Shown: positions 562 to 12,383 of the stretch, one piece after another
How positions within the stretch are numbered: the first letter of the stretch is position 1
Layout of the letters: every line of letters starts with the position of its first letter
Assembly: GCA_030691505.1 (NCBI GenBank)
Contig: JAUYEG010000081.1
Coordinates: 62,738 to 126,737 of the forward strand
DNA: 64,000 bases
Source: Bacillota bacterium
GTDB taxonomy: Bacteria > Bacillota > Sulfobacillia > JAUYEG01
Direction: 5' to 3'
Program-made: the position numbers and the translations under genes
The notes under the pieces: generated by a model
Seen by the model: the letters and a program-made list of their open reading frames with translations, nothing else
Told to the model about the DNA's origin: nothing
The model's database searches: none

Positions 562-1782
562 CTAGGTGCCGCTAACGGTCGTGGAAAACACCCGCTCGCC
601 GACCGGCCGCGCCATGTGCGCTCTCTTGCCCAAGCCGAAGTATAGGCCGGTGAACACCAGCATGGCGAGGCCCAGTTGCGCCAGGCTGAACGCGTCGTTG
701 GGCACGGTGGCCCTGAAGACCGCGGGGAGGTCGGCCAGCAGCGCGAAGTCATCCACACTTGGGATGAAGAGCATGGCCATGACGTTGTGTCCTACGTGGA
801 TGCCTATTGCCGCTTCAAGCCCCTGGTCCCTCACAACCACCCACGTCAGGAAAACCCCAAAGCCCACGTAGTACACCGCGATGGCCAGGCTGGCCGGAAT
901 ATGAACGGCGGCAAACAGCAGCGATGAGGCCAGGATGACGACCGCCCGGCGCCTCGTCGCCACACTGAGGCTCTGGAACAGGTAGCCGCGGAACAGAAAC
1001 TCCTCGGCAGCTGACTGCAAGACGAGCAGGGGAAAGGCGAAGAGGGCAAAAGGCAGCCACTTCGAGAGCTCCAGAGTGTAGACGGCGTGCCCGGGGCGCA
1101 GGACCAATTCGACAGCCGAGAGCGCGGCGATGATGGCTGCCCAGATCCCAAGGGCCCGGGCGGCCTTGGCCCAGCGGACCCGGCCCACCGTGTTCACGAG
1201 AGTCATCAGGGAACGACGGTGAAAGCGCCCCACGGCGAGGGCGACTCCCAAGAGCATGGGAACGTGGGCCGACAGGACCGCTGCCAGGGTCCAGTAGGGG
1301 CTGACCCCGGGCGGCGACAGGAAGGCGAGCCCGCCCGCCAGCGTCACGCCCACAATGAACCACATGTACGCGATGCACATGCCCGATGCCGCGTAGCGCC
1401 ACCCATCGTTTAGCCCGGCGGCACCGAGCCCCGCGTAGGTCAACCTTGGCGAACCGGCGGGCGATTGAGGAGAGGTATTGGGCGCTGCATCTGACGTCGC
1501 GGCCCGCCGCGCTCTTTTCGAAATCAGCCAGGCAAAGAAAAGGCTGACCGGCACCGCCGTGACGGCGTTTCCCACGGCGCCTGCGATGCAGCAGGCACCA
1601 AAGCCCGCGATACCGAGAGCCGGCTGCCGTCTACGGTACCCGGCCCATGCGGGAACGATGCCCGCGAGCATGCCGACCAGCATGCCGACGAAGGCCACGC
1701 CCAGCCAAAAGCCGACTGTCCATGCCTGGCTCAATGTCCGCTCGCACCGCCTTTGCCGCGCTACGTGATAGGGCGCAACCAT
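562..1782 (-). CDS. CPBP family intramembrane glutamic endopeptidase (CAAX protease / Abi family) with extended N-terminal membrane region
   Basis: 406-aa polytopic ORF with the CPBP motifs EEFLFRGYLF, FAAVHIP and HVGHNVM. The N-terminal ~80 aa are duplicated at 8880-9130. Confidence 0.7.
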   Translation of the reverse strand: MVAPYHVARQRRCERTLSQAWTVGFWLGVAFVGMLVGMLAGIVPAWAGYRRRQPALGIAGFGACCIAGAVGNAVTAVPVSLFFAWLISKRARRAATSDAAPNTSPQSPAGSPRLTYAGLGAAGLNDGWRYAASGMCIAYMWFIVGVTLAGGLAFLSPPGVSPYWTLAAVLSAHVPMLLGVALAVGRFHRRSLMTLVNTVGRVRWAKAARALGIWAAIIAALSAVELVLRPGHAVYTLELSKWLPFALFAFPLLVLQSAAEEFLFRGYLFQSLSVATRRRAVVILASSLLFAAVHIPASLAIAVYYVGFGVFLTWVVVRDQGLEAAIGIHVGHNVMAMLFIPSVDDFALLADLPAVFRATVPNDAFSLAQLGLAMLVFTGLYFGLGKRAHMARPVGERVFSTTVSGT

Positions 1783-1846
1783 TCTCGCGGCGATGCCCGC
1801 GTTCCTATCCTGCGGTAGCTAAAGGGCAAGGCAAATGGTGGTTTGA

Positions 1847-2708
1847 TTGCCGAAACGGTGCGGCTTCCGGTGCCTGCCGCGTAAACGTACCTACGCGGTC
1901 CATTACCAGGGCGCTGGAGAGGGTGAGCCGGCGCTGCTGCTGGTGCATGGTTTCGGCGCAAGCGTCTTTTCGTGGCACACGGTGATGGGGCCGCTCTCCG
2001 CCCTGGGCACGGTGATCGCATACGATCGTCCCGGTTTTGGGCTCACGGAGCGGCCCATGCCAGGCAGTTGGACGGGCCGGAGCCCGTACGGCGACGAGGC
2101 CAACATCGAGACGGCCATGGCCCTCGCCGATGCGGTCGGCCCACGCGAGCTTGTGCTGGTGGGTCACTCCGCAGGCGGCAGGCTGGCCGTGCTCACCGCC
2201 CTGAGTCATCCCGGACGGGTATCGGCGCTTGTGCTTGTCGCGCCGGCCCTGGGCGATCATCCCCGGTTTCCCGGCTGGTGGCGGGCCCTGGCCGCCACAC
2301 CTCTGGCCAGGCTGCTCGGCCCGCGGCTTTTGCGCCCGCTCATTGCCCGCGCCGGCAGGCTGATCAACCTGGCCTGGCACGACGCATCGCCTGTCAGCCA
2401 GGAGGACATCGAGGGCTACCGCCTGCCGCTGAGGGTCCGTGACTGGGATCGCGGGCTATGGGAAGTGCTGATTGCGGCTCGGCCGGCCGGACTCAAGGCG
2501 CCGGTTCTTTTCACTCACGGGCGATGATGACCGGATCGTTCCGGCTGCGGACACGCAGGCCCATGCCGCCCTGATCCCCCAGGCCAAGGTGGTCGTGATA
2601 CCGGAGTGCGGCCACCTTCCGCACGAAGAGCGGCCCGAGGCGTTTATGGCGGCGGTTAGCTCGTTTCTTTCCACCCTAAGCAACCCGGTTGAAACCGCGT
2701 GCGTGTAA
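1847..2708 (+). pseudogene. alpha/beta-fold hydrolase, frameshifted (copy 1 of duplicated gene)
   Basis: ORF 1847-2527 (HGFGASVFSWH, VGHSAGG) ends VLFTHGR*. The C-terminus continues in another frame (2472-2708: TGDDDRIVP...ECGHLPHEERPE). The intact paralog 9273-10172 reads LFITGDDDRIVP, so copy 1 has an extra base near 2515-2525. Confidence 0.55.
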
Positions 2709-2828
2709 TCCGGCTGCACTTCCCCTGCCATTACCTCTTTGAGGAAGGAGGACCGGCCTGTCTGGGGAACTCGGAACGGGTCTATGTGTGAGGGTTTGGA
2801 CCCCCAGAACGCAAAGGAGGTACCCAAC

Positions 2829-10172: not shown

Positions 10173-10498
10173 GCTTGGTGCGGGAGGTTTCAGACTCTAA
10201 CTTCGTCGCCGAGGTGCTGGAGAGCGCCTTGCCCGTCCTGGTCGATTTCTGGGCGACGTGGTGCGGGCCGTGCCGTGCGGTCGCTGCGGTGGTAGAGCAA
10301 CTCGCCGATGAGTTCCGAGGCGCCTTGAAGGTATGTAAACTCGACGTTGACGAGAGCCACGCGACTGCCCGCGAATGCGGGGTGATAAGCCTGCCGACCC
10401 TCATTGTGTTCAGAAATGGGGAGCCTGTCCAGCGCCTGGTTGGGTCTGTGCCGAGGATTGCCGAATTGCGGGCAAGGGTCAACGGGGTGCTGTCGTAA
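10169..10498 (+). CDS. trxA: thioredoxin
   Basis: [36 protein letters not shown]...LPTLIVFRNGEPVQRLVGS is the canonical thioredoxin fold with a WCGPC motif. The ATG overlaps the hydrolase stop (ATGA). Confidence 0.8.
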   Translation: MSLVREVSDSNFVAEVLESALPVLVDFWATWCGPCRAVAAVVEQLADEFRGALKVCKLDVDESHATARECGVISLPTLIVFRNGEPVQRLVGSVPRIAELRARVNGVLS

Positions 10499-10768
10499 GC
10501 CATGGCTAGCAGTCAACCGCGCTGATCATGCGCCGGTATCCGGAGCTGTCTGCCCTGGCGGCCGCGATGATCGGTCCGTTTGGCTACGGTGAGGGGTTTC
10601 TGCAGTCGGTCGGAGTCGTCTACCCAGGGATTGAGGGAATGCGCGTCAGGGCGCGGTTCTATGCCGGCACCTTCGCACTGCAGGAGGCCCTACACGGCGT
10701 AGAGCACGGAGACGAGGATGCGTTCAGGCGCGGCATCGCGGAGTATGTCTAGCGTCGGCACTCCGGTC

Positions 10769-12176
10769 CTAGTCGTTCGATACCGGCTCCGCGCCGACCT
10801 TACGGCCAAACCAGTACGTGACGCCCGCCTCGGCGGCGGCCCCGCCGACGTGGCCCATGACCCCGATCAGCGCACCCAGGCCGGGGGAGATGGCAACCAG
10901 CACAAACATCAGCGTTCCCATCACCAAGAGGTTGACCGTCTTCGCGAGGCCGATGACCGTTGTCGAGCCGTTTCGTAGCAACTGGCCGACCTGCAGCTCG
11001 GTCAGCATCCAGAGCACGGGACCGAGCGCCGCAACGATGAAGACCCGGTTGGCGGAGCCGATCAGGTCTTCGGGAGTACCCAGGACGGTGCGCATGAACC
11101 AGACCGCCACGCCAGAGACGCCAAAGAGGAACGTCAAGGTGCTGAGCGAGGCGCCCAACCACAGCCCGAATCGGCGCAGGACGGCCAGGCTCTGGCGGTC
11201 GGCCCAGAACACGACCATGACCTGCCGGAACTCCACCTGCAGCGCCACCAGCAAAAATGCCGCAAACCAGGCAACCTGAAAGGCTGCGATCGACCGTTCG
11301 GTCGAGAGTCCTGGCCATGGCCGCGTTGCCGAGTGGACGGCTGGCGGCCCATAGCAGGCCAGTAGCCATCAGCGGGAGGAGAAACCGCCATACGCTCGAG
11401 CGGGTCGGCACGGCCCCGGACGCCGGCTCGGCGGGCAGGCTGCGAAAAGAGCGGCTCGCCACCGCGAAAGCAAAAACCGCCTCCACCGTCATTCCGGCGA
11501 CCCACAGCACCACGCCCAGCGCCGAGCCCTGCATCCAGTTCCGGCCGCCGAGGAGCAGCGAAAAGCCCCAAACGGTCGCCAGCCTGAGGAACACACCGAT
11601 TGACATGAAGTGCGTCTGCCTGCGGAGCATCAGGATGCTCTGCGACACGTTGCGCCACGCCCACATGAGCGGCAGCGGGAGGCCGTATGTGATCACGGCC
11701 GTCATTTCAGTTGAAAGGCGTGCCGGCGCGCCAAAAACCCCCTGGTAAAGCCATTTCCCTACCGGAGTGAAGGCAACGAGGGCCAGCATCGCGGTAACGC
11801 CCACCGCGATTTCGAGCATGACCCTGACACCGACGACGAATGAGCGCCTGTCGCGGCCGCGGGCGATGAGCCACTGGTTTCCGCTGCCGGCGGGCCCGGC
11901 GAACAGGTCAACAATGCTCTGGCCCACGGCAAAGGCCGCCAGAGCCACGGCGGCATCATGGGCTTGCGACATGGCCGCATTGATAATGTTGAAAACGATG
12001 CCGTACGACAGGAACGTGACGGCCAGCGGCAGGTGGAACCGCACGATATCAACTGTGCGCAGGGACGGACGGACCTCGGCGACGCCAGCTGCACCGCTGC
12101 CAGCCGTGCTCGCTGAGCTTAGCGCCGCCAGTCCCGACACCTCCCCGAAATACCGCAAAGGACGATATTTCGCCAC
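10769..12176 (-). pseudogene. MATE/MOP-like membrane transporter, frameshifted (copy 2)
   Basis: The N-terminal 300 aa (12176 down to about 11290) match 4617-6041, then diverge after ARTLD. The C-terminal 160 aa continue in another frame (ORF 10769-11254: LVALQVEFRQVMVVFWADRQSL...). Confidence 0.55.
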
Positions 12177-12383
12177 TAGCTAGCAGCGTCGTTCCTTTTG
12201 AGATCGGAGCGGCGGCGAATGACCGACAGGTCGCTCCATTCGCGCGTCGTATCGGCTGCAGTGAAGTGAGAGGCACAGCGTTTTGATGGCTTTGTTTTGG
12301 TTTCCAGCGTGACAGCCCGCCTTTTCGCGCGTTAGACAGTTGCAGCGGAGGTGGGCAGCATAGGCGGCGAGGTGGTTTGGACG

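Follow-up and report, generated by a model that had tools for sequence, protein, structure and literature searches.

Two copies of a gene block and their losses

How did a bacterial contig come to carry the same gene block twice, with different genes disabled in each copy? The window studied here (the whole analyzed stretch, 64,000 nucleotides of contig JAUYEG010000081.1) comes from a metagenome-assembled genome (MAG) held at NCBI as 'Bacillota bacterium' (locus tags Q8P31_), from a contig of 187 kb. Its left part contains two copies of a block that includes the 5' part of a CPBP intramembrane protease gene and genes for an alpha/beta hydrolase, a thioredoxin and a membrane transporter. The tyrosine phenol-lyase gene tpl is present in copy 1 only, as the initial annotation of this DNA had stated. 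We hold with good confidence that this is a real two-copy block that has undergone recent reciprocal loss.

Homology between the copies was located by repeat search and blastn, and genes were identified by Pfam and NCBIfam profile searches. The copies span 1544-6040 and 8870-12205, are collinear on the same strand and share 74-80% nucleotide identity. Four blastn blocks connect them: 1544-1843 with 8870-9169 (80%, gapless, E = 3e-75), 1891-2674 with 9335-10141 (74%), 4260-4534 with 10208-10480 (76%), and 4617-6037 with 10769-12200 (79.5%, E = 0). They lie at one locus in one orientation, offset by 7.3 kb. The initial annotation had described a block repeated with order and orientation kept, and had proposed a pairwise alignment of the segments as a check; the four collinear blocks confirm the duplication far beyond chance. 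Two collinear multi-gene copies on one replicon are what is seen in a segmental duplication. The proteins are less similar than the ~85% identity first estimated, at 72% for the hydrolase, 72% for the thioredoxin, 81-83% for the transporter and 76% for the CPBP piece. The features of the block are as follows.

1544..6040, copy 1: CPBP 5' part, hydrolase pseudogene, tpl, thioredoxin pseudogene and intact transporter (blastn blocks, breakpoint alignments)
8870..12205, copy 2: CPBP 5' fragment, intact hydrolase, intact thioredoxin, APH remnant and transporter pseudogene, with tpl deleted
562..1782, minus strand: CPBP (Rce1-like) intramembrane protease, full length (PF02517, E = 1.6e-17)
1847..2708, plus strand: alpha/beta hydrolase of copy 1, pseudogene with three lesions
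2829..4199, plus strand: tyrosine phenol-lyase tpl, 456 aa, intact, single-copy (TIGR02618)
4218..4552, plus strand: thioredoxin of copy 1, pseudogene with a +2 frameshift at 4322-4326
4617..6041, minus strand: ANKH-like (MOP-superfamily-like) membrane transporter of copy 1, intact, 474-aa open reading frame (ORF; 460 aa at NCBI, MDP2872137)
8870..9108, minus strand: CPBP 5' fragment of copy 2 (~80 codons), within an open ORF at 8803-9228, with 300 nt gapless against copy 1
9273..10172, plus strand: alpha/beta hydrolase of copy 2, intact, 299 aa (PF00561, PF12697; NCBI MDP2872143)
10169..10498, plus strand: thioredoxin of copy 2, intact, 109 aa, WCGPC (TIGR01068, 106 bits against a cutoff of 96.8; NCBI MDP2872144)
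10528..10752, plus strand: remnant of an APH-family phosphotransferase, C-terminal ~62-74 codons
10769..12176, minus strand: ANKH-like transporter of copy 2, pseudogene with a -2 frameshift between 11300 and 11299

Copy 1 holds the only intact versions of CPBP, tpl and the transporter, and the hydrolase and thioredoxin survive unbroken in copy 2 alone. The redundancy is being removed by disabling lesions that have struck both copies. The right breakpoint (~6040/12205) lies just upstream of the transporter start codon, and the left breakpoint (~1550/8875) falls within the CPBP gene at codon ~80, the first ~80 CPBP codons (1544-1782) forming the left end of copy 1. The CPBP protein shares 55% amino acid identity with that of a related locus (L004) over residues 8-390, N-terminal extension included. 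The native extension in L004 and the breakpoint alignments agree with the earlier statement that the break lies inside the CPBP gene and leaves about 80 codons in copy 2. That the copy 2 piece is a separate small gene, fused to CPBP in copy 1, was ruled out by the same extension in the L004 protein.

Lesions in the two copies

The copy 1 hydrolase carries three lesions. An extra C at 2514 shifts the frame by +1, and its removal restores PVLFITGDDD, matching copy 2; without it the gene reads ...PVLFITGDDDRIVPA..., which matches copy 2 and the outgroup L008. This 1-nt insertion had been recognized earlier, and only its position changes, from near 2520 to 2514. A 21-nt in-frame deletion (~2490) lies just upstream of it, and a 121-nt deletion (~1844) has taken away the native GTG start together with ~20 N-terminal codons that copy 2 and L008 both conserve. 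At NCBI, the copy 1 gene (1847-2527) is annotated only as a 226-aa truncated product (MDP2872135). The copy 2 hydrolase has the GHSAGG, GDDD and CGH motifs, reads into the former tpl-thioredoxin spacer, and its stop codon overlaps the thioredoxin start (ATGA).

The lesion of the copy 1 thioredoxin is an expansion of (GT)2 to (GT)3 directly after the second Cys codon of WCGPC, which identifies the +2 as a (GT)n slippage. The 2-nt insertion reported earlier is real; it lies at 4322-4326, after the second Cys codon, rather than inside the CGPC codons near 4330. NCBI has no protein record between the TPL and transporter accessions, where this gene sits.

In the copy 2 transporter, adding 2 nt at 11299/11300 restores the full-length frame. 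A frameshift had been proposed near 11290, and it is found, as a -2, slightly away from that position. The window transporter itself has no Pfam or NCBIfam match, and a search of solved structures with the transporter profile gave no meaningful match. Eleven of 20 members of its family match PF07260 (ANKH; best E = 1e-10), so the earlier label 'MATE-like' is only loosely right. ANKH is presumably linked to the MOP superfamily.

The tpl product matches TIGR02618 over all profile positions (1-450 of 450) with 788 bits against a cutoff of 720.7, and tryptophanase models score it below their own cutoffs. Its GTG start is preceded by AAGGAGG, it shares 89-90% identity with the lyases of L003 and L004, and the exact protein was recovered in an independent assembly. 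The APH remnant of copy 2 shares 76% identity across 62 residues with the 3' end of an L005 gene annotated PF01636:APH. It accounts for the extra stretch of ~200 bp noted previously in copy 2 (10500-10770), which is placed here at 10528-10752.

Relatives and the opposite copy read through the frameshift sites in frame. A repeat is found only at the thioredoxin site, (GT)3, and none at the hydrolase or transporter site, so the lesions do not have the form of a programmed frameshift or a phase-variable switch.

Contigs from other assemblies reproduce much of this arrangement. Two of them, L007 and L009, are independent Logan assembly contigs from read set SRR13727536. L007 corresponds to window 5046-10273 at 100% identity with no gaps; it runs from the copy 1 transporter through the spacer, a decayed ger operon, into copy 2, and reproduces the copy 1-ger-copy 2 linkage along with all of the ger lesions. 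L009 corresponds to window 2515-4674 with four single-nucleotide polymorphisms (SNPs) and no gaps, and reproduces the thioredoxin +2. The SNPs lie at 2786 and 2808 in the hydrolase-tpl spacer and at 3140 and 3141 (adjacent and synonymous, in tpl codons 104-105), and indicate strain variation in the sampled population. A third contig, L090 (990 bp, from the different assembly GCA_041643295.1), matches window 9917-10702 at 99.1% and has the tpl-less hydrolase-thioredoxin-APH remnant order of copy 2, with a 2-residue variant of the copy 2 thioredoxin. The first 204 nt of L090 encode, on the opposite strand, a peptide resembling FMN (flavin mononucleotide)-dependent alpha-hydroxy-acid dehydrogenases. 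L090 represents either a sibling strain with a 5'-truncated copy 2 hydrolase or a chimeric contig.

Selection before and after the lesions

The ratio of nonsynonymous to synonymous substitution rates (dN/dS) between the copies is 0.13-0.25, with dS of ~0.8-1.3; these values come from the NG86 method, which is rough at dS 0.8-1.3 in a 65% GC genome. The dN/dS upstream and downstream of the frameshift is 0.234 and 0.230 in the hydrolase, 0.275 and 0.113 in the thioredoxin, and 0.119 and 0.144 in the transporter. Pooled, it is 0.176 upstream and 0.159 downstream. The post-lesion fraction of the divergence time has a 95% confidence interval (CI) of -0.21 to 0.13, giving an upper bound of ~13%. With L008 as outgroup, the frameshifted copy 1 hydrolase shows 18 branch replacements and the copy 2 hydrolase 20. 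No in-frame stops or further indels were found downstream of any frameshift.

The CPBP fragment has a dN/dS of 0.25 (CI 0.13-0.48), and 1.8% of bootstraps reach 0.5. The CPBP baseline is 0.41, and ~0.7 would be expected if the fragment had been dead from the start. With this value and 300 nt aligned without a gap, the divergence does not date from the formation of the present junction.

Nearly all divergence between the copies arose under purifying selection, including that in the now-disabled parts. Because downstream dN/dS is not raised and the CPBP fragment is constrained, we infer that the lesions, like the left junction in its present form, arose late in the divergence of the copies, and hence that the copies were functional genes for most of their separate history. 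The idea of reciprocal, complementary decay in the initial annotation holds in that each of the five genes has one intact copy. It does not hold as gradual decay after duplication, since dN/dS is not raised after the frameshifts.

Related loci and the ancestral state

Related loci that carry the block once come from a narrow uncultured clade, which is sparsely sampled (L003, L004, L005 and L008). Their gene orders are CPBP-lyase-transporter-sigma-anti-sigma in L004, hydrolase C-terminal remnant-lyase-transporter-sigma in L003, lyase-APH-family gene-transporter-sigma in L005, and intact hydrolase-lyase in L008. The block is single in these relatives, which makes the single-copy state ancestral. 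The corresponding right flank in the window is:

12351-12956 and 12940-14175, plus strand: extracytoplasmic function (ECF)-type sigma factor and putative anti-sigma gene (PF04542, PF08281)

The sigma/anti-sigma pair is the ancestral right flank, as it directly follows the transporter in L003, L004 and L005. Of the two ancestral flanks, copy 1 has kept the left one and copy 2 the right one.

The initial annotation had left to a comparison with related genomes whether tpl was inserted into one copy or deleted from the other. The gene order of the relatives shows that it was deleted from copy 2, because the hydrolase-tpl adjacency is ancestral (L003, L008). Insertion into copy 1 was ruled out, the hydrolase being followed by tpl in both of these loci. 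The APH gene has been lost from both copies, and only the window lineage has the thioredoxin. Being truncated in L003 and missing from L004, the hydrolase seems dispensable in the clade. In the slot between tpl and the transporter, L003 and L004 have no gene, L005 has an APH-family gene, copy 1 has the thioredoxin, and copy 2 has the thioredoxin with the APH remnant.

In the transporter phylogeny the two copies are sisters (bootstrap 0.95-1.0), and the transporters of L003-L005 fall outside both. The transporter dS between copy 1 and copy 2 is 0.81, nearly as high as that to L003 (0.94). Among named genomes, the nearest TPL is from a Candidatus Fermentithermobacillaceae MAG (84%), and the Symbiobacterium TPL shares 68%; a Symbiobacterium origin, which tpl, the ger genes and the high GC had suggested, was rejected on these values. 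None of 80 named-genome tpl loci shares the hydrolase, transporter, CPBP and sigma neighborhood, which is limited to the clade of L003, L004, L005 and L008. A transporter-based scan of GTDB gave no match, placing this genome and its close relatives outside that collection. A protein with Creatinase_N and Peptidase_M24 domains is encoded at window 58042-59166, 46 kb from the block, and an L003 gene with the same two domains (7956-9146; a domain match only) adjoins the hydrolase remnant of that locus.

The ger spacer

The 2.8 kb between the copies (6040-8870) is a decayed ger operon with three recognizable parts.

6205..7779, plus strand: gerA pseudogene in three pieces in different frames (PF03323 matches)
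7861..8400, plus strand: gerC fragment with residues ~202-382 left and ~600 nt of the 5' end deleted (PF05504; TIGR02887, profile positions 202-370 of 371)
8546..8773, plus strand: small membrane-protein ORF, 75 aa, no family match, at the right end of the spacer

The gerA pseudogene has at least two frameshifts, near 6650 and 7500. A tblastn search with the intact GerA of locus L035 placed residues 126-414 in frame 3 and residues 412-503 in frame 2. Together with the loss of ~200 N-terminal codons from gerC, this agrees with the degenerate state given for the ger locus in the initial annotation. NCBI lists pieces of these pseudogenes as proteins: MDP2872139 (GerA, 281 aa, 6740-7501) and MDP2872141 (GerC C-terminal part, 172 aa, 7864-8400). 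Homologues of the small ORF lie ~2.3 kb downstream of gerA in the metagenome loci L114, L117 and L118, which assigns it to the ger-operon remnant. A search for the source of the spacer returned GerA relatives of at most 62% identity, none adjoining genes of the block.

Origin of the second copy

In the history we prefer, tentatively and at somewhat less than an even chance, one of the copies would have diverged in a related lineage before being inserted at the homologous locus of this genome. The related-lineage copy would have entered through homologous exchange at one of its ends and an illegitimate joint at the other, that is, by homology-facilitated illegitimate recombination (HFIR). The integrated segment would have brought the ger DNA along. 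The redundancy would then be recent, so that single-hit pseudogenes would be expected. Acquisition of a diverged copy would explain the young lesions, the constrained CPBP fragment and the ger spacer. The anatomy of the junction is compatible with HFIR, with CPBP homology on one side and a ger/CPBP joint on the other; mapping the crossover point takes the donor and recipient sequences. Looking for a mobile element, we found no inverted repeats of at least 30 nt, no tRNA within 1-14 kb and no Rfam match, and none of the scanned ORFs has a transposase or integrase domain.

Several observations tell against this history and against reading the losses as reciprocal. The donor search found no donor lineage, the nearest other hydrolase being 62% identical compared with 72% between the copies. 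The copies are each other's closest relatives, which in-place duplication explains without an unsampled donor. The transporter shows 25 replacements in copy 2 and 9 in copy 1, with copy 2 faster over its whole length, as is typical when a paralogue within a genome is under relaxed constraint. In every relative sampled, sigma rather than ger adjoins the transporter, so the ger spacer needs an extra event under either origin. The APH gene, gone from both copies, is an exception to the rule of one intact copy per gene. The chance that four lesions hit different genes is 2^4/C(8,4) = 0.23 (for five, 2^5/C(10,5) = 0.13), so complementarity is not significant alone (p ~0.13-0.23); it is the pattern that selection for one working copy predicts.

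The strongest alternative, possible though somewhat less probable than integration, is an old in-place, tandem-like duplication after the split from L003-L005. The copies would have stayed functional for a long time (e.g., for dosage) and been relaxed recently, with the left breakpoint and the spacer secondary, produced by later deletion and insertion. The sister relationship of the copies, the missing donor lineage and the accelerated copy 2 transporter fit this history. One locus, one orientation, and a left flank with copy 1 and a right flank with copy 2 are a tandem signature, and the window holds another, older paralogous cassette. Purifying selection acted on all now-disabled parts, and long co-maintained in-genome paralogues would look identical in this respect. 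In-place duplication, however, requires that four or five redundant genes were maintained side by side for a long time (dS ~0.8-1.3) and then lost almost simultaneously. It also requires a secondary deletion to account for the CPBP fragment with its dN/dS of 0.25, and a separate event that put 2.8 kb of ger-operon DNA between the copies. Moreover, bacterial tandem duplicates are unstable, and transfer accounts for most blocks of diverged paralogues. Integration of a diverged copy is slightly favored over in-place duplication.

An artefact limited to the lesions is unlikely; in that case the duplication would be genuine, but one or more of the three frameshifts would stem from errors in the consensus or the assembly, leaving both copies largely intact and no reciprocal decay. 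The source is a MAG, and each frameshift is one small indel in an otherwise well-conserved frame. The hydrolase +1 and the transporter -2 lie outside the independent contigs and are read from the MAG consensus alone. L009 starts at 2515, one base past the extra C at 2514. This start looks like an assembly-graph branch, suggesting that the hydrolase +1 may be polymorphic or uncertain, and, like the reliance of these two indels on the MAG consensus, weighs against the reading of recent loss. The last base of L007, at 10273, is also the final base of the codon for the second Cys of WCGPC in the copy 2 thioredoxin, a position homologous to the copy 1 +2 site. The contig ends at 2514/2515 and 10273/10274 thus suggest assembly-graph branches, i.e., variants. 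Neither the intact nor the frameshifted hydrolase allele was matched in JGI metagenomes, and exact-protein look-ups with the sigma factor and the copy 2 thioredoxin returned no contig across the transporter frameshift.

Errors as the source of the frameshifts are opposed, on the other side, by the rest of the window. Coding segments were mapped by G+C content at third codon positions (GC3), and 40 of them between 12.3 and 59.2 kb were scanned against Pfam. None of the 40, spread over 47 kb, is interrupted; 33 have a Pfam match, with no split across neighboring ORFs. They include tig, clpP, clpX, two lon genes, ddl, valS, folC, rnfCDGEAB, apbE, maf, radC, mreBC, PBP2 and rodA. Frame breaks are confined to 1-12.2 kb of the window, and indel error throughout the MAG is ruled out by this unbroken survey. 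The thioredoxin +2 and all ger lesions recur in the independent assembly. Of the three frameshift indels, two are 2 nt long, and none falls within a homopolymer. The hydrolase carries two further deletions, and the losses of tpl and APH and the shortening of CPBP are structural changes, confirmed by L007 and L090. The initial annotation had named sequencing or assembly errors as what would undo its interpretation; they are largely excluded by the unbroken segments, the reproduced lesions and the three hits in the hydrolase.

A duplication followed at once by gradual complementary decay, with the disabled copies being pseudogenes for much of their divergence, is very unlikely. It would fit the single intact copy per gene, the several lesions in the copy 1 hydrolase, and the removal of tpl and APH by deletions. 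The equal dN/dS on both sides of the frameshifts, with post-lesion time at most ~13% of the divergence, speaks against it, as do the unaccelerated frameshifted hydrolase (18 vs 20), the absence of stops or further indels past any frameshift, and the CPBP fragment, which is not neutral.

A chimeric contig, in which an assembler joined copies from two related organisms, would suit the MAG origin and the presence of related organisms with single-copy blocks in similar samples, but is highly improbable: L007 spans the entire junction in a single contig at 100% identity, the longest exact between-copy match near the thioredoxin site is 16 nt and too short for confusion in a k = 31 graph, neither copy resembles an intact orthologous locus (CPBP is truncated in copy 2 and copy 1 lacks the sigma flank), and the copy 2 arrangement is also found in a second assembly, L090.

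Other features of the window

A second, much older four-gene paralogous cassette occupies 52191-55127 and 59238-62129, with DUF6754 and three membrane proteins without a family match. Its proteins are 33-48% identical, short DNA blocks reach 66-78%, and all eight genes are open. A tRNA cluster at 19189-19773 (His-GTG, Gln-TTG, Lys-TTT, Leu-TAG) lies immediately upstream of tig-clpP-clpX-lon. No GC3-typical coding segment was detected at 1-561, to the left of the CPBP gene.

Comparison with known systems and implications

The locus resembles several known systems in part. In reciprocal gene loss (fractionation) of eukaryotic duplicates, e.g., in Paramecium (PMC10195154), genes likewise return to single copy, with losses on both copies and intact genes interleaved. 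Here, in contrast, the block is bacterial and 3-4.5 kb long, the losses are very recent compared with the divergence, APH was lost from both copies, and the pattern is not statistically distinguishable from chance. Tandem segmental duplications in bacterial chromosomes likewise share orientation and locus, have their flanks split between the copies, and consist of sister copies. The present case differs in the 2.8 kb of unrelated ger DNA between the copies, in dS of ~0.8-1.3, and in a junction gene that seems not to have been dead since divergence began.

HFIR is reported to integrate linear foreign DNA through homology at one of its ends and an illegitimate joint at the other (PMC3240628). 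Here too one end lies in homologous CPBP and the other is a non-homologous joint (ger against CPBP codon ~80), and the extra segment brings unrelated DNA at its flank. At ~20-25%, the divergence is within the range in which plain homologous exchange gives way to events of this kind (compare the transformation of Bacillus subtilis with divergent DNA, PMC6382021). Unlike in HFIR as described, no donor has been identified here, and the likeness comes from anatomy and dN/dS only. Compared with Bacillota tpl loci (TIGR02618), the window tpl is a full-length member whose neighborhood differs from that of the 80 named-genome loci.

The process is thus a known kind of evolutionary process and not a new kind of system. 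The locus provides a clean, well-bounded bacterial case of a duplicated block returning to single copy, in which outgroups fix the ancestral order. It is possible, though we consider it doubtful, that this region captures, in a natural population, the resolution of redundancy just after a diverged copy was integrated next to its resident counterpart, with some lesions still polymorphic. The contig ends at the hydrolase +1 and at the active-site codons of the copy 2 thioredoxin, together with an apparently different hydrolase truncation in a sibling strain, are the basis of this suggestion. If it is true, the order, rate and selection of reciprocal loss would be measurable from metagenomic reads.

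Some proteins called by NCBI are pseudogene fragments, namely the 226-aa hydrolase, the GerA and GerC pieces and probably the copy 2 transporter. In metabolic reconstruction of this MAG, one functional copy each of tpl, thioredoxin, hydrolase and transporter should be counted. More generally, the divergence between bacterial paralogue blocks need not date the junction that joins them, and the selection signature in the dead parts can reveal that.

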